Shown here one piece after another: positions 10,025 to 53,433 of a DNA stretch of 64,000 bases. The position numbers and the translations under genes are program-made. The notes under the pieces are model-generated. The model saw only the letters and a program-made list of their open reading frames with translations. It did not search any database and was not told the origin of the DNA. The stretch is from Patescibacteria group bacterium (GTDB taxonomy: Bacteria; Patescibacteriota; Patescibacteriia; UBA2591; UBA4787). Position 1 is the first letter of the stretch. Each line of letters opens with the position of its first letter. Location of the stretch: positions 3,314 through 67,313 of the forward strand of contig JAQUSN010000001.1 in the NCBI GenBank assembly GCA_028715115.1, in the 5' to 3' direction.

Positions 10025-10053
10025 TTGACAAAAGAGAGAAAATATGATAACAT
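10025..10053 (+). promoter_or_regulatory. sigma70-like promoter TTGACA-17-TAACAT of GC-rich cassette 1
   Basis: TTGACA at 10025-10030, TAACAT at 10048-10053. AAGGAGG at 10086-10092 precedes the GTG start. Confidence 0.4.
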
Positions 10054-10098
10054 ATGGGTACTTAGCACAAAGGGCACTAATGCCCAAGGAGGTTCTAC

Positions 10099-10797
10099 GT
10101 GAAAGTTCGCAATCTCTGGCACCTGACATGGATCGTGCCTGTGACCGTAACGGCTGTGATTGGGCTCGGGACAGCAATCAAGCCCATCACCCACGGCATC
10201 AAGCAGGCGTACGCCAAAATGGGCCGAGTGGCCGGCGATTTCGCCGACAACACAGCCTGTGCAGCTATAAACCAGCTCAATGACGACACGCTCGACGCGA
10301 AGCGGCTGTCCAGGCGGCAACTACTCGACTCCCTCTACTACCTAAGAATGCGGGTCCAGGAACAGGAGTATGAGCTGACAGACCTGTACAACCAGCTCAA
10401 CACCAACCTGTACTACCAGACCGGCATCTTCCGGGTCGAGGCGGCGGAAATACAAAACGTCCAAATCAACGGCCTCTACGAAGAAGCCGATGGCCTGATC
10501 AACAGACTGATCCATACCTGTTACCTCGGTCGAAACGTCATGTCCGACTACCTGACAGCACCCAAGGGCGCCCAGGCAGACACCAAAGTCATGCTTGAGC
10601 ATGCGTTTTACCAGGTCATTCGACCTGCGTCGCGACGCATCATCCAGTACCTGCAGATCAAGCACTACAGGGACGGATGGACCAACAACCTGGGAATCGG
10701 ATGGCCGGAACTGAACGGGGAAGATCTGCGATGCCTTAACTGGGCAGTCGCGGTCAACCTAGACCAGCCAACAACCTGGCTCTACAGCGAACCGTAA
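10099..10797 (+). CDS. hypothetical secreted/membrane-anchored protein encoded in a high-GC island (GTG start)
   Basis: 232 aa. Strong GC3 codon bias (about 55-58% GC against a 38% background). AAGGAGG RBS 6 nt upstream. N-terminal hydrophobic segment. Confidence 0.6.
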   Translation: MKVRNLWHLTWIVPVTVTAVIGLGTAIKPITHGIKQAYAKMGRVAGDFADNTACAAINQLNDDTLDAKRLSRRQLLDSLYYLRMRVQEQEYELTDLYNQLNTNLYYQTGIFRVEAAEIQNVQINGLYEEADGLINRLIHTCYLGRNVMSDYLTAPKGAQADTKVMLEHAFYQVIRPASRRIIQYLQIKHYRDGWTNNLGIGWPELNGEDLRCLNWAVAVNLDQPTTWLYSEP

Positions 10798-10808
10798 CCG
10801 TTCCGAAA

Positions 10809-10850
10809 AAGGCCGGGCCCCGCAAGGAGCCCGGCCTTGACTTTTATCTA
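10809..10850 (+). terminator. intrinsic terminator with a GNRA-capped GC stem (AAGGCCGGGCCCCGCAAGGAGCCCGGCCTT) and a T tract
   Basis: 10-bp GC stem followed by GACTTTTATC. Overlaps the -35 box of the next promoter. Confidence 0.6.
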
Positions 10851-10864
10851 AAATATGCTATTAT
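10837..10864 (+). promoter_or_regulatory. sigma70-like promoter TTGACT-16-TATTAT, near-identical to the promoter at 32551
   Basis: ttgacttttatctaaaatatgctattat versus ttgacttttaaccaaaatatgctataat at 32551-32578. Confidence 0.45.
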
Positions 10865-10941
10865 ATAAAAGCAATCGTAGAAATACGAAGGCAAGAACGT
10901 CGCTGGACACAAGTCTAGCGGCACAAACTAAGGAGACAAGA

Positions 10942-11397
10942 ATGAAGACGCTTATTCCCTTAACGATAGTTATCCTGCTGCTCGGCTTCGGGGGCTGCAC
11001 CAAAACTGGCGCAATTCCCGAGGACAATCTGGTAGCAACCAGCATAACGGCCCCGCACGATTCCCTGGATGAACTCTCAACATCAGCGAAACAGCTGATA
11101 CGGGACGTCAAGGACGCCATAACAGACAATGACAACCCGCGCGACTTCTGGTTCTGGACGATCGGCAGGTCGTTGGCCAAGATGGCTGTGGCACTGCAAC
11201 GTGCCCCGACCGAACGACAGACGTTCTATCTGCCTATCCTGAAGAAGGAACTCGAAGTCTACAACCAGAAGTTCTGCCCTTGTGCCCGTTCCTACCGAGA
11301 AGACCAGGCAGTCCTGACCTGGGTAAAGCAATTCCAGGCGGAAGACTCGACTACCTGGACACCACCCGAAGTGCTCCTGCGCGGAGCACTCGAATAA
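10942..11397 (+). CDS. hypothetical lipoprotein (high-GC island)
   Basis: 151 aa. MKTLIPLTIVILLLGFGGC is a lipobox-like signal. AAGGAG RBS at 10930-10935. A 5' UTR hairpin CGCTGGAC-ACAA-GTCTAGCG precedes it. Confidence 0.6.
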   Translation: MKTLIPLTIVILLLGFGGCTKTGAIPEDNLVATSITAPHDSLDELSTSAKQLIRDVKDAITDNDNPRDFWFWTIGRSLAKMAVALQRAPTERQTFYLPILKKELEVYNQKFCPCARSYREDQAVLTWVKQFQAEDSTTWTPPEVLLRGALE

Positions 11398-11410
11398 CCT
11401 CCGCTGGAAC

Positions 11411-11450
11411 CAAAACCGGCCGCCTTCGGGCAGCCGGTTTTCCTTTTGCG
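11411..11450 (+). terminator. intrinsic terminator AAAACCGGCCGCC-TTCG-GGCAGCCGGTTTT plus CCTTTTG
   Basis: GC stem with a UUCG-type loop and flanking A/T tracts. Confidence 0.6.
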
Positions 11451-12363: not shown

Positions 12364-13146
12364 TTATCTTTTTAATAAATATTTTAGCCAACTGGACGCG
12401 TGAATCCAGGTTATTTTTTTAAATAGGCCCAGCGGTTCAGCTGATAAACGCTGGTGATAATGATAAAACGGCGCTTCGGCTACGTACCAAACCTGCCAAT
12501 TATTTTTTTTCACCCGGCGGCATAATTCCACGTCCTCAAAATAAAGAAAGAATCTTTCATCCAGCCCGCCAATTTGCTCAACCGCCAACCGGTTTAACAT
12601 CATAGCTCCGCCCAAAACCCAATCAACTTCCCTATTTTCTTGATGATCCCAGTCTTTCATTAAATAATAATCAATTTGTTTTTTACCCCAGCCAAATCGG
12701 CCCAAAAAAGTACGCCGCAAAATTGGCATATACCACTTAGGAAAACGATAGGCCGAAAACTGAAGGGTTTTATCCGGATTTAAAAGTTTTGGCGCAGCAA
12801 TAGCGCAACGACCATGGCTCTTTATAAATTGATGCAGTTTTTCAACCGACCCGGGCAAAATAATAATATCTGGATTTAAAACTAAAACATATTGGCCAAT
12901 AGATTGTTTAAGACCTTGATTTACGGCCTTAGCAAAACCAAGATTAACAGCATTTAAAATTATTTGCGGTTTAATAGCGGGCTCGTTTTTAATGTCACTT
13001 AATAAGTCCCTCGTGCCGTCGGAAGAATTATTGTCGACAACAATCAATTCAAAATTTAATTTTATCTGTGCATTAATAATGTTCTGCCAGCATTGTTTGA
13101 GCAGATTTTTTTGATTGTAATTAACAATGATAATCGACAGGTCCAT
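12364..13146 (-). CDS. family 2 glycosyltransferase
   Basis: LSIIIVNYNQ...VVDNNSSDGT GT-A fold motifs. Confidence 0.8.
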   Translation of the reverse strand: MDLSIIIVNYNQKNLLKQCWQNIINAQIKLNFELIVVDNNSSDGTRDLLSDIKNEPAIKPQIILNAVNLGFAKAVNQGLKQSIGQYVLVLNPDIIILPGSVEKLHQFIKSHGRCAIAAPKLLNPDKTLQFSAYRFPKWYMPILRRTFLGRFGWGKKQIDYYLMKDWDHQENREVDWVLGGAMMLNRLAVEQIGGLDERFFLYFEDVELCRRVKKNNWQVWYVAEAPFYHYHQRLSAEPLGLFKKITWIHASSWLKYLLKR

Positions 13147-13147
13147 T

Positions 13148-14254
13148 TTAATTAATATATTTTCTTATTTTATCGCTCTTGATTTTAGCCCGAGAAAAAA
13201 TCTGCGCGCGTTTTTTAAACATTAAAATCTGCTTAGCATAAAATGATTTTTCGGCTTTTAATAAAACCCCTGGTTGAGTAAATAATAAATATAAAATTTT
13301 GATTGATTGGTAAAAGAAAATATGAAAAATATCTTTTAAAAAATTGGCGATGGGCTCATTTTTAATAAGCAACCACAAATGATTGCGATAGGATAAAAAA
13401 TTAACCCAGCTCGACTTGTTGAATCTTTTCATTGCCGACACTTGCCGAACATGATATGCTATCGCCTCTGGCACATATAAAGCACCCCAATTGCGCCACT
13501 TTAGTCGCCACGCCAAATCAATGTCTTCTTGGTAAGAATGAAAATCTTCGTCAAAATATTCATTTCTAAAAGCCGACTTGCGTCGCTCTCCCATAGAAAA
13601 ACGTGAAGCACTTGGTGCAGACGAATAATGAGAAAAAATTTTTAATTTTATATCATCTAAAGCCTTCCGTCTATACAAGACGCAAGCACCAGAAACGCCA
13701 AAAATATCAAATAATTTATCGTATTGTTTTTTATCGACTTCCCCTTCGCCGCGATCAACTACCCGCCTAGTTCTTCTAATAGCAAGGCCTGTGCTATCTA
13801 AAATATCGGTTTTAGTCACGCACCAGTCGGGGTTGATGGCTGCGCCAGCGCCTTGTTGCTCCTGGTGCTCGCCGTGATCAATATGAGAGAATTTCATCTT
13901 TAATAATTTTGGCGCAAAGCTGCCAATCTTCTTTTGTTTGTCAACTTCATTAATTATTTTTTCTAAAAAATCCGGCTCTAAAATAACGTCCGGATTTAAA
14001 ACCAAAACATATTCGCTATCTGTAGCCAAAATCCCCTGGTTGTGGGCTCTGGCATATCCGCAGTTGCGGGAATTTTTTAAAATTTTAACTTGCGGCCAAT
14101 TCCTAATTAAATAGCCGACCGAATGGTCAGAGGAGGCGTTATCGATAATTAAAATCGAAAAATCCCGAAAGGTTTGGTTAAATATCGACTCCAAACAATC
14201 AGGCAAAAACCTTAAAGAATTCCAAGTGACGATTTGTATTGAAACCTTGACCAT
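13148..14254 (-). CDS. family 2 glycosyltransferase
   Basis: VSIQIVTWNSLRFL...IIDNASSDHS. DxD-like motifs. Confidence 0.8.
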   Translation of the reverse strand: MVKVSIQIVTWNSLRFLPDCLESIFNQTFRDFSILIIDNASSDHSVGYLIRNWPQVKILKNSRNCGYARAHNQGILATDSEYVLVLNPDVILEPDFLEKIINEVDKQKKIGSFAPKLLKMKFSHIDHGEHQEQQGAGAAINPDWCVTKTDILDSTGLAIRRTRRVVDRGEGEVDKKQYDKLFDIFGVSGACVLYRRKALDDIKLKIFSHYSSAPSASRFSMGERRKSAFRNEYFDEDFHSYQEDIDLAWRLKWRNWGALYVPEAIAYHVRQVSAMKRFNKSSWVNFLSYRNHLWLLIKNEPIANFLKDIFHIFFYQSIKILYLLFTQPGVLLKAEKSFYAKQILMFKKRAQIFSRAKIKSDKIRKYIN

Positions 14255-14312
14255 CCTACCTACTAATTACGAATTAAAACTAATTGCGAATAATTTCTAT
14301 CTCCGATCAATA

Positions 14313-15713
14313 TTAAATAAAACTAATCATTAAAACTTGATAAAAAATTCCTAAAGGATGAAATAAAAATGGGCCGGTTAAATTAGCCACCATTAAAGAA
14401 ACAAAACCAACCGCTAAGCCGACGGAAAGATCTCGGGAAAAACGTGAAGCACCTTTAAGATAAGAAAAAATTAATTTGCCCGAAAAAGCCAGATAAACCA
14501 TTAGGCCCAACAAACCAAGCTCCAGCCACATCTCTAACCATCCCCAATCAGGATTCGAAGTTTTCGTGATTAAATTATTAAGCGGATTTAAAAAACTGAC
14601 CATAGAGCCCAGGCCAGGGCCAAAAATTGGATTCTGCTTTATTTGAAACAATAAATTGGGCAGAATTCTCAATCGCGTCAAAGAGCTTAATTCTTCTTCT
14701 GGTTGAGTAATAGTCCCCAAGCGTCCAGACAGAAACGTCAAACCAGCCAGCTTCCCGGTAGTTAGAAAATAAATCAAATTAAATTCTACTACAAAAACCA
14801 ATAAAATCAAGATGAAAGCTATTAACCAACGACGCCAAGATAAATTGAGCTTTAAAAGCATAAGTCCAGCTAAGATGCCTAAAAAATAACCGCGCGAAAA
14901 ATTAATCATTAAACTCAAACTAATGGCCACGGCTAAAATAATAAGATTCTTTCGTTCTCCACGGGAAACATTTCGGCCCAAGACAAGACTTAAAAGAACT
15001 AGAAGCAACGGCAACATCCATAAATGAGCCGGAAAAACAATGCGATAAAATCCGCTTCCCAAGTCAGTCACCTTGCCCACGGCTATTTGCCTCAACCACC
15101 AATAATAATTATCATGAACTTGGCTTAGGCCAGCTGAATAAATAAATAAGTTAGCCAAGGTAAGGATGCTTACGCCGATTACAGCCACGGCCAAAATTCT
15201 CGTCAGCCACGGCCAATAACTTTCTTTTCTAAAAAATTCGCTGAGCGGAAAAACTAACAAGAAAAAACCATAAGCCATGGCGTCTTGAATCACCAAAAGA
15301 GACTCATGGTTATTCCAAAATCCTCGCCCCACAGCCAGTAGAACCATTAGGGCTAAAACTAGCCAATAAACAGAAATAGATTGTTGAAAAAAAAGTATTT
15401 TTTCTTGCTTCACTATCTTTCTTGTTAACCAACCAATCAACAAAATTATCATCAAGGCTGAACGCAAAGAAATGTTTTGCCATTCGAGAAAATGCCCAGC
15501 CTGACCAAATAATAATTCTCCCAAAAATAATAAAATGGCGAAATCAAATCGCCAAATAACCAAACAGATCATTAAAAATACCAGCAACCAAAAGAAAACA
15601 ACCTGAACAATAAGGACATGAAAGCCTAAAAATGAAATTAAATTAAAAGCAAAAAAAATGGCCAAGCACAGCCAAAATCTTCGGTCAAACAAATTAGTAA
15701 CGGCGAGAGACAT
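14313..15713 (-). CDS. polytopic membrane protein, O-antigen ligase/Wzy-like polymerase family
   Basis: 466 aa with more than 10 predicted TM helices. Embedded in a glycosyltransferase cluster. Confidence 0.6.
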   Translation of the reverse strand: MSLAVTNLFDRRFWLCLAIFFAFNLISFLGFHVLIVQVVFFWLLVFLMICLVIWRFDFAILLFLGELLFGQAGHFLEWQNISLRSALMIILLIGWLTRKIVKQEKILFFQQSISVYWLVLALMVLLAVGRGFWNNHESLLVIQDAMAYGFFLLVFPLSEFFRKESYWPWLTRILAVAVIGVSILTLANLFIYSAGLSQVHDNYYWWLRQIAVGKVTDLGSGFYRIVFPAHLWMLPLLLVLLSLVLGRNVSRGERKNLIILAVAISLSLMINFSRGYFLGILAGLMLLKLNLSWRRWLIAFILILLVFVVEFNLIYFLTTGKLAGLTFLSGRLGTITQPEEELSSLTRLRILPNLLFQIKQNPIFGPGLGSMVSFLNPLNNLITKTSNPDWGWLEMWLELGLLGLMVYLAFSGKLIFSYLKGASRFSRDLSVGLAVGFVSLMVANLTGPFLFHPLGIFYQVLMISFI

Positions 15714-16581
15714 AATAATTCTTTAGCCAAGGATAAAACAATTGAACAAAAAACGACATTAATAAGCTTAGTGGCGTTAAGCAGGCTAGAAATATCGCCT
15801 GCCAAAACGGATGGTGCTTACGAAAATAATAAATCAAACTGCGATTATAAATTTTTTGTTTTTTTAAAGGTGAAATTTTGAAAAAACTTTGATGCCCTAA
15901 ATGCTTCACTTTTATTTCCGGATCATAAACAACCTGATAATTTAATTTTTTAGCTCGATAGCACAAATCAACTTCTTCAAACCACAAAAAGAATTTTTCG
16001 TCAAAACCATGCAATTTTTCCATTAACTCCCGCTTGATTAAAAGGCACGCTCCCATCACCTGATCCACGGCTTGTTGTTTTTGATAGTCAAAATCGGACA
16101 AAAAATATTTTTTAAAAACTTTAGTGCGCGGAAAAAGATTGTGTAGTTTCAATAAAATTAAGGCCTGTGAGAAAACGTCGGGAAAACTCCGTACCGAGGC
16201 CTGGGTTTCTTTTTCTTCGTCGATAATCTGTCCGCCCAAAATGCCAGCTGATGAATCTTTTTTAAGATGATCGATAGCAATATCTAATGAATTTAATAAA
16301 ATTTCGGTGTCAGGATTAAGGAAAAGTATTATTTCGCCTTTTGATTTTTTAAACCCCTGATTGCAGGCTCTGGCAAAACCAAGGTTTTGATTATTAAAAA
16401 TAATCTTAAGATTATCGAATTTTTTACTAATACTTTCTAAAAAATCCTGACTGCCATCGCGTGAATTATTATCAATAATAATAACTTCATATGGCATTGA
16501 CGGCTGGTTTTGCCAGATAGAATTCAAGCATCGCTCCAATAGCGATCTGACGTTCCAGTTAACAATGATAATAGACAGCAT
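15694..16581 (-). CDS. family 2 glycosyltransferase
   Basis: MLSIIIVNWNVRSLL...IIIDNNSRDGS. Confidence 0.8.
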   Translation of the reverse strand: MLSIIIVNWNVRSLLERCLNSIWQNQPSMPYEVIIIDNNSRDGSQDFLESISKKFDNLKIIFNNQNLGFARACNQGFKKSKGEIILFLNPDTEILLNSLDIAIDHLKKDSSAGILGGQIIDEEKETQASVRSFPDVFSQALILLKLHNLFPRTKVFKKYFLSDFDYQKQQAVDQVMGACLLIKRELMEKLHGFDEKFFLWFEEVDLCYRAKKLNYQVVYDPEIKVKHLGHQSFFKISPLKKQKIYNRSLIYYFRKHHPFWQAIFLACLTPLSLLMSFFVQLFYPWLKNYYVSRRY

Positions 16582-16620
16582 ATGGTAATATTATTGATAT
16601 ATCTGATATTTTATCATTTC

Positions 16621-16648
16621 TTGACAAAATGTCAAAAAATATTATAAT
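16621..16648 (+). promoter_or_regulatory. consensus sigma70 promoter TTGACA-16-TATAAT of GC-rich cassette 2
   Basis: ttgacaaaatgtcaaaaaatattataat. GGAGGTG RBS at 16668-16674. Confidence 0.5.
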
Positions 16649-16677
16649 TAAATCAAGCAACCTGTTTGGAGGTGTTG

Positions 16678-16914
16678 ATGACTAGAGAGCAAAGTGATTG
16701 GCTCGTAATAGGAATAGGGTTTGTACTTACCTACACGCTCTCCCTGTTCTTGCCCTACACGCCATTCTTCGTCCACGCCATCAAGATGTTCATCGTCAAC
16801 TTACTGTGGTGGGGAGTCGTCATGGGGCTGGCCGCTTCAGAAGGTCGACGCTTCGACGAAGAAACGAAGCAACGAGCCATACGACTGAGCATAACAAACG
16901 CCGGTCGCGCCTAA
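16678..16914 (+). CDS. small two-TM membrane protein (78 aa) encoded by high-GC DNA
   Basis: MTREQSDWLVIGIGFVLTYTLSLFLPYTPFFVHAIKMFIVNLLWWGVVMGLAAS... GC3-rich codons. The ORF track starts earlier at a TTG. Confidence 0.55.
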   Translation: MTREQSDWLVIGIGFVLTYTLSLFLPYTPFFVHAIKMFIVNLLWWGVVMGLAASEGRRFDEETKQRAIRLSITNAGRA

Positions 16915-16935
16915 GCGCGACCGGCTTCTATTTAT
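16892..16935 (+). terminator. intrinsic terminator CCGGTCGCGC-CTAA-GCGCGACCGG plus T-rich tail
   Basis: 10-bp GC stem that contains the stop codon in its loop, followed by CTTCTATTTATATT. Confidence 0.6.
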
Positions 16936-25543: not shown

Positions 25544-25765
25544 CTAGCTCTTCAAGGCGCCAGTTTTAATCAAAAACTCGCGCTTAGCCTGATCGCTCTT
25601 GCGTCGTAAAGCGCTAATTTTTCTCGCTCGCGAAGTAGTTGTTCGAGAACGAAAACGGCGGCCTTTCACTTCTTTGACTAGGCCACTGCGCACTACGCTT
25701 TGATTGAAGCGTCGAATCATTCCCTCGGTCGATTCGCCAGCTTTTTTCTTAACTTCGATTGTCAT
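25544..25765 (-). CDS. rpsU: 30S ribosomal protein S21
   Basis: MTIEVKKKAGESTEGMIRRFNQSVVRSGLVKEVKGRRF... -35/-10 TTTACA-17-TATAAT and an AGAGGTGA RBS upstream on the minus strand. Confidence 0.85.
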   Translation of the reverse strand: MTIEVKKKAGESTEGMIRRFNQSVVRSGLVKEVKGRRFRSRTTTSRARKISALRRKSDQAKREFLIKTGALKS

Positions 25766-25832: not shown

Positions 25833-25925
25833 AAAGAAAAACAGGTCCCAGCCGAAGCCGGGACCCGTAGGGGGTCAAAACCGCTCTCAGGACGAAAGCG
25901 GAGACCGAAAACTCGCCGCCTCCAC
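25833..25925 (-). ncRNA. candidate small RNA (about 90 nt, GC-rich) with its own promoter and an intrinsic terminator, divergent from glyA
   Basis: Minus-strand TTGACA (25954-25959)-16-TAAGAT (25932-25937). Terminator GGTCCCGGC-TTCG-GCTGGGACC (25844-25865) followed by TGTTTTTCTTT. No SD and no credible ORF. Confidence 0.25.
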
Positions 25926-25944
25926 CACAACATCTTAATATATT

Positions 25945-32550: not shown

Positions 32551-32578
32551 TTGACTTTTAACCAAAATATGCTATAAT
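32551..32578 (+). promoter_or_regulatory. consensus-like promoter TTGACT-16-TATAAT of GC-rich cassette 3
   Basis: ttgacttttaaccaaaatatgctataat. AAGGAGG at 32593-32599. Confidence 0.5.
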
Positions 32579-32603
32579 TTAAAAACAAACTAAGGAGGAA
32601 ATC

Positions 32604-32966
32604 ATGCTGATTGTGATTGTGATCTGGGCCGTCCTGATGCTGGCCTATCCCGTCCTTCCCGTTGTTCTTTCGGGAATCTTACCGCCCCTGGTCTTTCTGA
32701 TCCTGTCCCTGATCTCAAACGAGGACTCTGTGTTCTCGACTCTGTGGACGGTCTTCATCATCTGCGGTATAGTCGGCGCCATCCTGAGCATCTTCTTCGT
32801 CCCGCAAGAGATCTTTTCGGCCAAAGACCCTGTGGTGCTGTATTTCCGGTTCACGAGGATGTGTGGCCTAATCGCCGCCTACGCAGTCACGATTGTCGTG
32901 GCTATTGTGAAAGTCATCAACTTAATCGAGACAAGGGCAAGAGCAAGGGCCGCAACAACCGTCTGA
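32604..32966 (+). CDS. small polytopic membrane protein (120 aa) encoded by high-GC DNA
   Basis: MLIVIVIWAVLMLAYPVLPVVLSGILPPLVFLILSLI... GC3-rich. About 4 TM helices. Confidence 0.55.
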   Translation: MLIVIVIWAVLMLAYPVLPVVLSGILPPLVFLILSLISNEDSVFSTLWTVFIICGIVGAILSIFFVPQEIFSAKDPVVLYFRFTRMCGLIAAYAVTIVVAIVKVINLIETRARARAATTV

Positions 32967-32974
32967 TCAGCAAC

Positions 32975-33012
32975 TGGGGCGCTCGCACATCGCGGGCGCC
33001 TCTGACCGTTTT
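32975..33012 (+). terminator. GC-rich hairpin (GGGCGCTCGCACATCGCGGGCGCC) plus T tract
   Basis: Follows the stop of the 32604 ORF. Followed by TCTGACCGTTTTAG. Confidence 0.45.
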
Positions 33013-35276: not shown

Positions 35277-35332
35277 TGGAGCCGAGGGTGAGGATCGAAC
35301 TCACGACCTATGGTTTACGATACCGTTGCCCC
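35277..35332 (-). pseudogene. 3' remnant of a tRNA-Thr-like gene (D-stem 3' side through CCA, anticodon CGU)
   Basis: rc = GGGGCAACGGTATCGTAAACCATAGGTCGTGAGTTCGATCCTCACCCTCGGCTCCA. Its acceptor 3' strand CCTCGGC matches the isolated 5' fragment GCCGAGGTAGCTC at 35625-35637. Confidence 0.5.
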
Positions 35333-35347
35333 GCCTGCCATCGCCCT

Positions 35348-35420
35348 AGCCCGCGGTCGGAATCGAACCGACAACCTACGGTTTACGATACCGTTGCTCT
35401 ACCAGTTGAGCTACACGGGC
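35348..35420 (-). tRNA. tRNA-Thr (anticodon CGU)
   Basis: rc = GCCCGTGTAGCTCAACTGGTAGAGCAACGGTATCGTAAACCGTAGGTTGTCGGTTCGATTCCGACCGCGGGCT. 7-bp acceptor, loop ATCGTAA. Flanked by GGCGATGGCAGGCGGGG (35329-35346) and CCTGCCCGCCATAG (35426-35439). Confidence 0.85.
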
Positions 35421-35444
35421 TCAGGCTATGGCGGGCAGGTCTAC

Positions 35445-35528
35445 CCTACTTCGAGCTTATTAATTAAGCTCGAACGGGCCGTCCAGTTTTTTTCAAAAAC
35501 TGGAATAGGCCAATTGAGCTATCTGGGC
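35445..35528. repeat. conserved double-hairpin repeat (TTCGAGCTTA-N-TAAGCTCGAA, CGGGCCGT, CCAGTTTTT-N3-AAAAACTGG, AATAGG) fused to a 19-nt tRNA 5' fragment (GCCCAGATAGCTCAATTGG on the minus strand)
   Basis: About 80% identical to 41280-41358. The hairpin core is also at 40671-40690. Confidence 0.7.
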
Positions 35529-50537: not shown

Positions 50538-50566
50538 TTGACATTTTCTTAAAAACGTGCTATAGT
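50538..50566 (+). promoter_or_regulatory. promoter TTGACA-17-TATAGT of GC-rich cassette 4
   Basis: cttgacattttcttaaaaacgtgctatagt. AAGGAGG at 50583-50589. Confidence 0.45.
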
Positions 50567-50594
50567 ATAATTACCAATTAATAAGGAGGCTCCG

Positions 50595-50765
50595 GTGAGC
50601 GATTTCTTGAAGATATTGATCGGCTTAGTAATGCTGATCGGAGGCGGACTACTGAGCTATACGGCGTTCTGCCCCATCGTCCTGTGCATTGCCGGAGCAG
50701 GCGCCATCATAGCGCTTTGGTCCGCTTATGTCATGGCTTGCCGGTCTTGTCACATAGCAGGCTGA
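50595..50765 (+). CDS. small (56 aa) Cys-containing hydrophobic protein, GTG start, high GC. Absent from the ORF track.
   Basis: VSDFLKILIGLVMLIGGGLLSYTAFCPIVLCIAGAGAIIALWSAYVMACRSCHIAG. GC3-rich. Perfect SD spacing. Confidence 0.5.
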   Translation: MSDFLKILIGLVMLIGGGLLSYTAFCPIVLCIAGAGAIIALWSAYVMACRSCHIAG

Positions 50766-50795
50766 CTTCGGTCAGCCTGCTTCTGCTTTTATTTA
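50756..50795 (+). terminator. intrinsic terminator GCAGGCTGAC-TTCG-GTCAGCCTGC plus TTCTGCTTTTATTT
   Basis: 10-bp perfect stem with a UUCG loop that overlaps the stop codon. Confidence 0.65.
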
Positions 50796-51985
50796 ATTTT
50801 TTCTTTTATTTTTAATATTATTTCGTCAACCTTGCTTTGCCAAGAATTTTCTCGGGCCGCTTCGATTCGCAGTCTTTCCCGTTCAGCGTCATTTTCGGCC
50901 AGAGCTTTTTCTATATTTTGCTGAAAACCGGCATAATCCTGGGCAAAATAAATCAAATGTGAAAATTTGCCCAAGGCCGGCATCGGCGTACTGACTACCG
51001 GCTTACCACAAGCCAGATAGTCATAAAGTTTCATCGGGTTCATCGACATAACAAACTCATTGACTTGATGGGGAATAATGGCTACATCAAATTGATGAAT
51101 ATAATTTGGCGCCGCATCATAACCCTTACGGCCCAAAAAATAAACGTTTTTATACTTTTTTAATTGGCGAATTTCTGAGGGCGCCTTTCTGAAGGAACGG
51201 AAAAATTGCGGCCAAATCGGCCCAACTAAAACCAGGGATTTGTCCGGATTTTTTTCGGCCACATATTCTAATAAATTAAAATCTAAACGATCTTGAATAA
51301 TGCCCAAATATCCGATAATCGGATGTTTTATTTTTTTCATATCAAACGGCACTTTATCGGCGCCGATAAAGTGCGACGCATCAACGCCGTTAGGCAGCCA
51401 ATAAATGTCCTTGTTCCGCCCCAGCTGCCGAAACAAATCAACCAACGAATTGGCAACGGTAAAAATTAAATCGGCCTTTTGGCTGATAATTTGATAATTT
51501 CTTTTTAAAATTTCTTGATATTTAATATAAGAGGGGTGGGCCAACCAATTATCCACGGCCTCAAAAACATTTAAATCCTCGTTTAACCGACCAAAATATT
51601 CAATAAACATCGGGAAATAGGAAATCACCACTCGCTTCATTTGTTTTGGTCCGTCGTTTAATTTTTCTAAAATAGAATTTAATTTTTTTATTACCAATTT
51701 TTTTGAAAAAAAAGAATCAATGGTGGAAAAAACTATTAATTTTTCATTAATTTGCCTAACTCGCGTGGTCGGATCGCTATAAATCAACTCTTGCTGGGGA
51801 GCGCCGATAATATTTTCTATCCAATTTCGAATCGCTCGATGAAATGTAAAAGGCAAAAAATCAACAACTACAATTCTTTTAATTTCGGGGCTGGCCAATA
51901 ATGAATTTAAAATATGAAAATTACGATTATTGGTGCCGCGCTGCCACTCTGAATACGAAGACATGTTAAACATTATCAGCTCCAT
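50789..51985 (-). CDS. family 1 (GT4-like) glycosyltransferase
   Basis: C-terminal GT-B motif region (KLYDYLACGKPVVSTP). Confidence 0.8.
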   Translation of the reverse strand: MELIMFNMSSYSEWQRGTNNRNFHILNSLLASPEIKRIVVVDFLPFTFHRAIRNWIENIIGAPQQELIYSDPTTRVRQINEKLIVFSTIDSFFSKKLVIKKLNSILEKLNDGPKQMKRVVISYFPMFIEYFGRLNEDLNVFEAVDNWLAHPSYIKYQEILKRNYQIISQKADLIFTVANSLVDLFRQLGRNKDIYWLPNGVDASHFIGADKVPFDMKKIKHPIIGYLGIIQDRLDFNLLEYVAEKNPDKSLVLVGPIWPQFFRSFRKAPSEIRQLKKYKNVYFLGRKGYDAAPNYIHQFDVAIIPHQVNEFVMSMNPMKLYDYLACGKPVVSTPMPALGKFSHLIYFAQDYAGFQQNIEKALAENDAERERLRIEAARENSWQSKVDEIILKIKEKIK

Positions 51986-51990
51986 ATCTT

Positions 51991-53433
51991 TTAGCGATTA
52001 GTTTTAAAAAATTTGGTCAAGTTTTTTAAATATTGAATATCGGCTGCATTAATAAGTCCCATAATCCAAACGCCTAAAGCATAAATACCAACGCCAATGA
52101 TGGCCACCACCCACCAAGGAAAAAGCGAATTTAATAAAACCATAATTAAGCCCATGACTACGCTGATAACTAAAACCTGGACGAATTTACTTAAAAGCGA
52201 ACGAAGTGGAATAAAAATTACTTTCTGCGTTCCGAGCCAACCCAAAACAACCAGCAAAATAAAACTTAAAACAAAGGCAATAGAAGAACCTATCTGTTGT
52301 AGTAAAGGAATTAAAAGCAAGTTAAAAATAATTATTACTATCATGGCTACGGCTCGATTAAAAACATTGCGTTTTTCTTGGCCGATGGCGTTTAAAACGG
52401 TAAAAAATACATAATCCAAGAAAACAAACAACATACTCCAGCTTAAAATTTTTAAAGCCGGCACGGCCGATAAGAATTTATCACCGAAAAGAATTAGAAT
52501 CGCCGGTTCGGCTAAAACCCATAAGCCCACCGCCAGCGGTACGGTAAATAAAATAATATAGAAAATAATTTGTTCTAAAATTCTTTTTAATTCTTCTTTA
52601 TTGTTTATAAAATAAAAACAAGCCGCCGGATAAAGCGCCGAAACCAGAGCAATCGGGAACATCCTCAGCCCTGCCGGAATCTTGCCGGCCGCCGAATAAA
52701 ATCCAACTGCCTGATCATTAGCCAAGCGCGACAAAAGCACAACATCAATATAAGAAAAAACCGTGCCGAATAAACCAGACCAAAAAAATGGCAAAGAGAC
52801 TTTAATCATTCCTCGAATAGTCGCCTTGTCTAGTTTTAGGCTTATCTTAATTGATCTTTTTTTGCGCAAAAAAAACATTCCGTTTAAAAAATTAAAGATT
52901 GAAGCTAAAATTAACGGAATGATTAAATATGGCAAAGGTAAATGGGCGAATAAAATCACCAAACCAGTTGCTAAAACGATTACTTGATAAATTCCCAAAC
53001 CCAGACCTTCATATTTTAAGTTTTGCCAACCGCGCAACACCGAATAGTTGGTATTGGCAAGATTCTCTAAAACAATAACCAAGCCGGCCAAATAAACTAA
53101 TTGTCGAGTAATCTCCGGATAAGGTAGAAGCTTAACCGCGATAACTATTAAAAGATAAATAATCGCCGAGGTGATCAGCTTAACCGAAATAATATTGTAA
53201 AAATAACCTCTAGCCTTTTCTTCGTCACGAGCGGCTTCGCGTATTAAAAATTGGTTTAAGCCCAAGTCGATAAAAATAGAAAAAATCGCCGCAAAAGAAA
53301 TGGCGAAAGTGTATTTACCGACTGAGTCAGGCCCTAAAAATCTGGCTAAAAAAATAAAATAGACAAAGGCCAGTATTTTCTGAACAACCGACCCGCTAAG
53401 TAAATAAATACTATTGCGAGATATACTGGCCAT
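51991..53433 (-). CDS. polysaccharide biosynthesis protein / Wzx-like oligosaccharide flippase (MOP superfamily)
   Basis: 480 aa with about 12-14 TM helices. Adjacent to the GT1 gene. Confidence 0.7.
   Translation of the reverse strand: MASISRNSIYLLSGSVVQKILAFVYFIFLARFLGPDSVGKYTFAISFAAIFSIFIDLGLNQFLIREAARDEEKARGYFYNIISVKLITSAIIYLLIVIAVKLLPYPEITRQLVYLAGLVIVLENLANTNYSVLRGWQNLKYEGLGLGIYQVIVLATGLVILFAHLPLPYLIIPLILASIFNFLNGMFFLRKKRSIKISLKLDKATIRGMIKVSLPFFWSGLFGTVFSYIDVVLLSRLANDQAVGFYSAAGKIPAGLRMFPIALVSALYPAACFYFINNKEELKRILEQIIFYIILFTVPLAVGLWVLAEPAILILFGDKFLSAVPALKILSWSMLFVFLDYVFFTVLNAIGQEKRNVFNRAVAMIVIIIFNLLLIPLLQQIGSSIAFVLSFILLVVLGWLGTQKVIFIPLRSLLSKFVQVLVISVVMGLIMVLLNSLFPWWVVAIIGVGIYALGVWIMGLINAADIQYLKNLTKFFKTNR

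Follow-up and report, generated by a model that had tools for sequence, protein, structure and literature searches.

A GC-rich single-gene unit with a foreign codon dialect and a predicted membrane protein in a Patescibacteria chromosome

Within a 64,000-nucleotide stretch of the genome of a Patescibacteria group bacterium (GenBank assembly GCA_028715115.1, contig JAQUSN010000001.1; this whole stretch is called the window here), a GC-rich unit of 315 bp on the plus strand lies between the start of the glycosyltransferase (GT) gene GT295 (16581) and the stop of p545 (16957), a gene for a TSP3-repeat protein, and contains an open reading frame (ORF), c78, for a predicted membrane protein of 78 amino acids (aa). 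The flanking genes are those of Patescibacteria, the nearest sampled relatives having 50-56% aa identity in GT295, and read on the minus strand as genes for a 1935-aa surface protein and for TSP3-repeat proteins of 192 aa and 545 aa (p545), followed, beyond the c78 unit, by GT295, a Wzy-like gene, GT368, GT260 and TatD. The wider flanks are chromosomal (AddA, TatD, glycosyltransferases, IleRS, rpsU, transfer RNAs (tRNAs) and folate enzymes). An earlier note on this DNA had set the unit in the middle of a glycosyltransferase locus and on the strand opposite to it; the strand is right, but the position is the 5' edge of that locus. Identical cassette DNA with both flanks was found in Logan contigs (SRR22315507, SRR22315509) and in GenBank (GCA_028686935.1, GCA_028713815.1), and since these are independent assemblies the unit is not an assembly chimera.

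Signals of the c78 unit

The earlier note had described a self-contained unit of transcription and translation, with a TTGACA-16-TATAAT promoter, a Shine-Dalgarno (SD) sequence, a 78-aa ORF and a hairpin that encloses the stop codon, and all of these are present beyond what chance would provide (Table 1). The promoter is the best site and the sole 12/12 consensus match in the part of the window from 10 to 24 kb, and perfect TTGACA-N16-18-TATAAT sites number two in the window as against 0.04 expected from shuffles. The SD ends 3 nt before the ATG, which follows the GGAGG core by 5 nt, and it is free in the predicted fold of the 5' untranslated region (UTR; 5' 46 nt of the messenger RNA (mRNA), -7.5 kcal/mol, z = -0.57). 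The ORF occupies the space from promoter to terminator exactly, so much so that its last four codons before the stop form the 5' arm of the hairpin and the stop codon sits in the CTAA loop; the stem had been given as 10 bp of GC, and it does enclose the stop codon but is one pair longer. The hairpin has a folding energy of -25.4 kcal/mol on the plus strand (z = -5.9) and -29.6 kcal/mol on the minus strand, is A-rich on its 5' side and T-rich on its 3' side, and was scored as terminator-like in both directions, which makes it a candidate for an intrinsic terminator that works both ways.

Table 1 Features of the c78 unit and of its siblings, in window coordinates
Feature	Coordinates	Strand	Details
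Cassette -35, TTGACA	16621..16626	+	part of 12/12 consensus match
Cassette -10, TATAAT	16643..16648	+	16-nt spacer to the -35; from sequence only
Palindrome TTGACAaaaTGTCAA	16621..16635	both	-35 hexamer on each strand; back-to-back promoters
Divergent promoter TTGACA-16-(TG)TAAAAT	16608..16635	-	11/12, extended -10
Shine-Dalgarno GGAGGTG	16668..16674	+	7 nt pair with the canonical 16S 3' tail
ORF c78, MTREQSDWLVIGIGFVLTYTLSLFLPYTPFFVHAIKMFIVNLLWWGVVMGLAASEGRRFDEETKQRAIRLSITNAGRA	16678..16914	+	ATG 16678, TAA 16912-16914, 78 aa
Predicted TM helix 1, ~residues 8-26	16699..16755	+	Kyte-Doolittle; AF2 helix 3-24
Predicted TM helix 2, ~residues 30-53	16765..16836	+	polar His33/Lys36/Asn41; hydropathy, AF2
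Predicted charged C-terminal helical tail, residues 54-78	16837..16911	+	net positive; AF2, hydropathy
Hairpin GCCGGTCGCGC-CTAA-GCGCGACCGGC	16900..16925	both	11 bp, 10 G-C and 1 T-A
Interrupted U-tract TTCTATTTAT	16926..16935	+	directly after the hairpin
Promoter-like TGGACA-17-TATAAT	16975->16947	-	11/12; points into the hairpin
c232 unit	ORF 10099-10797	+	TTGACA-17-TAACAT, AAGGAGGT, hairpin 10809-10838; 232 aa, N-terminal anchor
c151 unit	ORF 10942-11397	+	TTGACT-16-TATTAT, AAGGAG, hairpin 11412-11441; 151 aa, lipoprotein-like
c120 unit	32551..33000; ORF 32604-32966	+	TTGACT-16-TATAAT, AAGGAGG, G+C hairpin 32978-33000; 120 aa, ~4 TM
c56 unit	50538..50790; GTG 50595-TGA 50765	+	TTGACA-17-TATAGT, AAGGAGG; 56 aa, two-TM, MSDFLKILIGLVMLIGGGLL...
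TM, transmembrane; AF2, AlphaFold2.

The -35 hexamer of the unit is one half of a palindrome, TTGACAaaaTGTCAA, that occurs as a single perfect copy in the window and whose other half would serve a divergent promoter; from its placement ahead of the GT295 ATG at 16581 this second promoter would drive GT295-Wzy-GT368-GT260 and probably also TatD. An operator role for the palindrome was considered and dropped, as no significant repetition was found in the window. On the other side of the unit, where the earlier note had seen no antisense promoter, an 11/12 site on the minus strand points into the hairpin; its -35 falls within the conserved p545 coding sequence for WYPDG and its -10 in the AT-rich spacer, and the other cassettes scanned have no comparable site. 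It could yield a short, hairpin-sized RNA and is probably fortuitous.

Sibling units, codon dialect and coding status

A scan of GC content at third codon positions (GC3) found four more such units on the plus strand of a window that is mostly minus strand, which makes at least five in total. Every sibling combines a promoter of TTGAC type with an SD of AGGAGG type and a G+C hairpin. Each unit sits between two co-directional minus-strand genes, the divergent one starting 32-131 nt from its promoter end and the convergent one stopping ~6-31 nt from its hairpin; at least four separate sites in 64 kb are occupied in this way. The c232 and c151 units stand in tandem in one plus-strand island (10025..11441), and their products are annotated as hypothetical proteins in four metagenome-assembled genomes (MAGs). 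The c56 unit lies between the stop of GT398 (50789) and the apparent minus-strand terminator of GT398 (50495-50477); its stop codon is enclosed by a hairpin (50756-50781), as in c78, and it was never called as a gene in a collection of ~15 billion proteins. No match to Pfam, PHROGs, PADLOC or NCBIfam was obtained for c232, c151, c120 or c56, c232 found only itself (word-indexed search, IMG/VR), and the AF2 model of c232, with a predicted local distance difference test (pLDDT) score of 43, was unusable.

The c78 unit is foreign to this genome, as shown by codon usage opposite to that of the native genes, by a strong SD and by its absence from the same site in relatives. The composition is atypical, as the earlier note had it, although its figure of ~55% GC is to be corrected to 52% for the ORF (GC1/2/3 = 0.52/0.42/0.62), with peaks of 58-60% in stretches of 100-150 nt, compared with 39.5% for the window; native long genes of the window have a GC3 of ~0.37. 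The contrast is plain in single codons, with TTC (84% in cassettes, 16% in native genes), TAC (75% and 14%), AAC (83% and 25%) and CTG (51% and 8%) preferred in cassettes and TTA (6% and 45%) avoided, and relative synonymous codon usage (RSCU) of cassettes and native genes is negatively correlated (-0.45). All five cassette ORFs have a common third-position profile, with C at 0.36-0.44 and T at 0.09-0.16. High expression does not explain this usage, since the ribosomal-protein genes of the window stay native in codon pattern (GC3 0.32-0.36). When every possible start among the first 60 codons of a gene was allowed and a 5-nt SD core in range was counted, an AGGAGG-type SD preceded 5/5 cassette ORFs and, among 58 native genes, rpsU alone, plus one internal chance match; related Patescibacteria loci are likewise SD-poor (median 0% of genes). 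GC3-rich ORFs like c78 are rare in ~1.1 Mb of other Patescibacteria loci, as compared with six in the 64-kb window.

The c78 frame very probably codes for protein. A codon model for which three siblings annotated as proteins in GenBank were the training set gives this frame +11.5 bits, the other five frames -20 to -45 and shuffles -29.3 +/- 9.6 (0/2000 attain the observed value), while a native codon model gives c78 -27 bits; T is low at codon position 3 (0.10) and high at position 2 (0.38). A functional RNA (structured or dual-function), or inert captured DNA in which the scarcity of stops at high GC left a frame open, is a very unlikely alternative. It draws on the fold of the whole transcript, which is better than that of shuffles (z = -4.8), on our own estimate that ~3% of random frames as long as this one would have no stop at 52% GC, on the largely open state of all three plus-strand frames across the island and on the failure of NCBI records to call the gene. 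However, leaving out the terminator brings the fold score down to z = -1.5 to -2.5, so a structured RNA is not indicated, and Rfam 15 gave nothing at the gathering threshold (best sub-threshold hit 24.9 bits, where 58.7 would be needed). The frame-specific codon signal that c78 has in common with siblings annotated as proteins, the correct SD-ATG spacing, the exact fit of the ORF to the unit and two clean transmembrane (TM) helices also argue for a protein.

The two-TM product proposed in the earlier note agrees with both predictors used: Kyte-Doolittle hydropathy marks TM segments at residues 7-27 and 30-53, and an AF2 single-sequence model folds c78 into a helical hairpin (helices 3-24 and 27-77, pLDDT 85.8). 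From the positive-inside rule the tail is predicted to be cytoplasmic, and the polar residues of TM helix 2 (TM2) together with the basic tail would be compatible with oligomerization or with binding of a partner at the inner face. Read together, the signals and the model outline a course in which housekeeping-sigma RNA polymerase would start at the consensus promoter near 16655, a 22-nt unstructured leader would present the strong SD, the 78-aa product would enter the membrane as a helical hairpin with both ends cytoplasmic and its positively charged C-terminal helix resting on the inner membrane face, and transcription would stop at the 11-bp G+C hairpin with the stop codon in its loop. The cassette would by now also be part of the wiring of its neighbours, lending its hairpin to the convergent p545 and the -35 half of the palindrome to the divergent GT promoter.

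Searches for relatives of c78 returned only the query itself, both from a collection of 5.8 billion clusters (word-indexed search) and from an exhaustive phmmer search of 1.84 billion representatives (~15 billion proteins). Nothing significant was found in Pfam, PHROGs, PADLOC or NCBIfam, no relative in phage and plasmid DNA (tblastn, blastn) or IMG/VR, and nothing among PDB sequences or, with Foldseek searches of the predicted fold, in BFVD and PDB. No paralogues of c78 were found, and relatedness to c56 and c120 was not significant. The earlier note had considered that c78 might prove to be a conserved housekeeping protein of native composition in relatives; no homologues were found, and its codon usage is atypical.

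The size and hydrophobicity of c78 had suggested to the earlier note a type I toxin or a holin, and we consider a membrane-damaging peptide of either kind, that is, a type I toxin restrained by antisense RNA or a class II holin of the pinholin type, quite unlikely. Oligomers formed through the TM2 face His33/Lys36/Asn41 would in that case depolarize the membrane. Class II holins and pinholins such as S21-68 of phage 21 are proteins of ~70-80 aa in which a short turn joins two TM helices and the C-terminal cytoplasmic tail is basic or charged, and c78, which is small and has two predicted TM helices, a short turn and a charged C-terminal tail, has this general shape. It differs in that it has a promoter that looks constitutive, no sequence or profile likeness to holins, no dual-start motif and no lysis-cassette context: there is no lysin domain within +/-10 kb and no endolysin, spanin or phage gene nearby, the neighbours being glycosyltransferases and TSP3-repeat proteins. 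Neither does any Pfam, PHROGs or PADLOC entry, or any BFVD or PDB fold, support a toxin or holin. As for a toxin, the 3'-overlapping type I loci of Bacillus subtilis, TxpA/RatA and BsrG/SR4, offer a likeness in that c78 is small, hydrophobic and intergenic and convergent transcription over its 3' end and hairpin is possible; the minus-strand site would give a short RNA complementary to the 3' end of the mRNA, and read-through from p545 would also be antisense, since the minus-strand U-tract GTTTGTTATG is poor. Type I toxins, however, usually have fewer than 60 aa, one TM helix, a 5' UTR whose structure masks the SD, and several copies, whereas c78 has 78 aa, two TM helices, an unstructured 5' UTR with a free SD, a single copy and no family match. 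The location of the minus-strand site in conserved coding sequence and AT-rich spacer, and its absence from the other cassettes scanned, make it a weak candidate for the promoter of a dedicated antitoxin RNA gene, and a constitutive-looking consensus promoter with a free SD is ill-suited to a lethal product.

Relatives of the locus and origin of the unit

The genes around the c78 unit have a traceable history. An operon of flippase-GT398-GT295-Wzy-GT368-GT260 is contiguous in >30 Patescibacteria loci (L007-L011, L018 and ~25 others) and is split here at GT398/GT295, with its halves 34 kb apart (50789-53433 versus 12364-16581). The derived order p545-GT295-Wzy-GT368-GT260-TatD is common to the window and to the related loci L071, L111, L095, L075 and L074, in none of which the p545-GT295 spacer has a GC-rich ORF; the spacer measures 80 nt in L071, 221 nt in L111, L095 and L075, 150 nt in L074 and 375 nt in the window. 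An origin of the unit at a rearrangement breakpoint, considered on account of the split operon with a cassette at both ends, was dropped; L071 and L111 have the split but not the c78 unit, and the split therefore predates insertion of c78. In these relatives the spacer contains a terminator (AAAGAG..CTCTTT followed by T7) ~21-24 nt past the p545 stop and then a TGnTATAAT-type -10. The cassette hairpin of the window lies 31 nt past the p545 stop, at the place that the native terminator has in relatives, and, being terminator-like on both strands, it probably also ends p545 transcription. Most simply, this lineage would have gained the unit, and the signals of the cassette would have been co-opted at that time or later.

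Even two closely related loci (L111 3860-3990 and L074 600-655) have different short hairpin-bearing inserts after an identical terminator and -10, and small insertions seem to collect in the p545-GT295 spacer.

The nearest parallel is with the morons of Hendrix and colleagues, which are reportedly extra genes in lambdoid and other prophages with their own promoter and factor-independent terminator. Like them, c78 is a single gene with what its sequence marks as its own sigma-70-type promoter and intrinsic terminator; it stands between genes that are adjacent in related genomes (L071, L111, L095, L075, L074), departs from its flanks in composition (GC3 0.62 versus ~0.37, with the negative RSCU correlation given above) and encodes a small membrane or exported protein with no assigned function. 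It differs from morons in that it lies in a chromosome with no prophage, has no PHROGs match or IMG/VR relative, belongs to a set with at least four insertion sites in 64 kb, carries an SD in a genome otherwise without them, and has had its terminator and -35 co-opted by neighbouring genes. Integron cassettes are a poorer parallel, as c78 has its own promoter and a perfect short hairpin that is not an attC site, and the units are scattered rather than arrayed. We therefore lean, with some reserve, towards reading the c78 unit as a lineage-specific, horizontally acquired, moron-like chromosomal cassette for a membrane protein. Its product would most likely be an accessory membrane protein of mobile-DNA origin (exclusion, immunity or envelope-modifying) rather than a housekeeping one, a role taken from its class only because the protein has no relatives.

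We caution that several observations weigh against horizontal acquisition of a coding cassette. Neither a donor nor an integrase, a target-site duplication or a terminal repeat could be found for the cassette; the relatives with an empty site are distant (50-56% aa identity in flanking genes) and may themselves have lost the unit; and had the whole unit come from a GC-rich donor, its AT-rich consensus promoter would be an odd companion to the GC-rich ORF. Over 28 nt the promoters of c151 and c120 are near-identical (TTGACTTTTAnCnAAAATATGCTATnAT; chance expectation 0), a hint that promoter modules have been re-used locally. A GC3-rich, SD-led state can also persist through deep divergence and so does not always signify recent transfer: in the Komeilibacteria-like syntenic loci L028 and L058, whose flanking genes are 50-70% identical, a homologous secreted protein of ~200 aa (L058 11027-12469 and L028 10887-11522, both minus strand; 42-44% identical, no Pfam match) has a GC3 of 0.79-0.82 where the flanks have ~0.50, and its gene has both an SD, AAAGGAG, and a terminator hairpin of G+C type, with a consensus-like promoter visible upstream in L058 only; its RSCU correlates with that of the window cassettes at 0.70. 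Finally, all available copies are >= 99.98% identical over the loci compared and the cassette itself is invariant, so neither dN/dS nor covariation can test coding or function, and c78 goes uncalled on the GenBank MAG contigs of GCA_028686935.1 and GCA_028713815.1 despite identical DNA; calls of the gene come from Logan contigs alone, and the protein collection searched gives no NCBI accession for it.

Some of these observations would suit an alternative in which the units form a native class of Patescibacteria genes, SD-led and GC3-rich, with their own promoters and terminators, encoding envelope proteins and maintained by selection, for example for mRNA stability or for a subset of ribosomes, their lack of homologues then reflecting fast evolution or de novo origin. 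The secreted protein of L028 and L058 is a case in point, as are the likeness of the five units in orientation and architecture and the 28-nt promoter that two of them share. We nevertheless hold this to be unlikely. The closest relatives in which this local gene order is found lack the c78 unit, no homologue of c78 (exhaustive search) or c232 (word-indexed search) was found, and the GC3 of the ribosomal-protein genes makes translational selection for expression improbable.

At the cassette, direct and terminal inverted repeats were limited to AT-rich pairs at chance level, and no flank motif is common to the cassettes. Elsewhere in the window, tRNA-Thr(CGU) (35347-35421) is flanked on the minus strand by ~80% identical partial copies of its 3' and 5' parts (35280-35329 and 35510-35528), and the spacer from tRNA-Thr to tRNA-Gly is ~400 nt long and GC-rich, with local repeats. 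These partial copies may be an integration scar or a disrupted second tRNA.

SD-led genes, rpsU and significance

Among the native genes of the window, 57/58 have no SD; the exception, rpsU (bS21; 25544-25765, minus strand), has an extended SD GAGGTGA, in the context AAGAGGTGA, 7 nt before its ATG, that pairs over ~7 nt. A like signature is described for Bacteroidia, where ribosomes are SD-blind because bS21, bS18 and bS6 sequester the anti-SD and where bS21 is autoregulated; rpsU, the lone gene there with a strong SD, is translated preferentially by ribosomes that lack bS21, and the SD pairing energy reported for rpsU in Bacteroidota is < -13 kcal/mol (PMC7797042, PMC9976891, PMC13000453). 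The window resembles SD-blind Bacteroidia in its SD-less genes and SD-bearing rpsU, the cassettes being its few other SD-led genes; it belongs, however, to another phylum, and the likeness here is one of gene leaders alone. By analogy with Flavobacteria, where rpsU is likewise the lone exception, the five SD-led units might be read mainly by ribosomes with a free anti-SD (for example, those lacking bS21), and their envelope proteins would then appear only on a shift in ribosome composition, which we regard as a long shot. If true, 'specialized ribosome' control would extend from Bacteroidota to the candidate phyla radiation, and foreign genes would carry a built-in conditional switch through ribosome composition.

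Upstream of the rpsU promoter lies a GC-rich stretch of ~95 nt (25838-25930, minus strand, with TTGACA at 25959-25954) with two hairpins, which has a strong terminator (GGGTCCCGGC-TTCG-GCTGGGACC followed by T5), contains GGUGGAGG and folds with z = -3.3, with no Rfam match; a small RNA or a leader may lie here.

Patescibacteria are host-dependent organisms with tiny genomes, and little is known of how they acquire new envelope functions. The c78 unit is best classed as a chromosomal version of the moron, and it is of value as a sharply defined lead, short of a discovery. Complete single-gene units with a foreign codon dialect, at least five in number, occupy terminator-promoter spacers between core genes in this one window. 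Two of them, c78 (78 aa) and c56 (56 aa), are missed by current annotation, and small acquired membrane proteins are thus probably under-counted in the phylum. Together with rpsU, the SD-led units make it possible to ask concretely whether, in this lineage, the SD is used by the ribosomes, ignored by them or a means of regulation.

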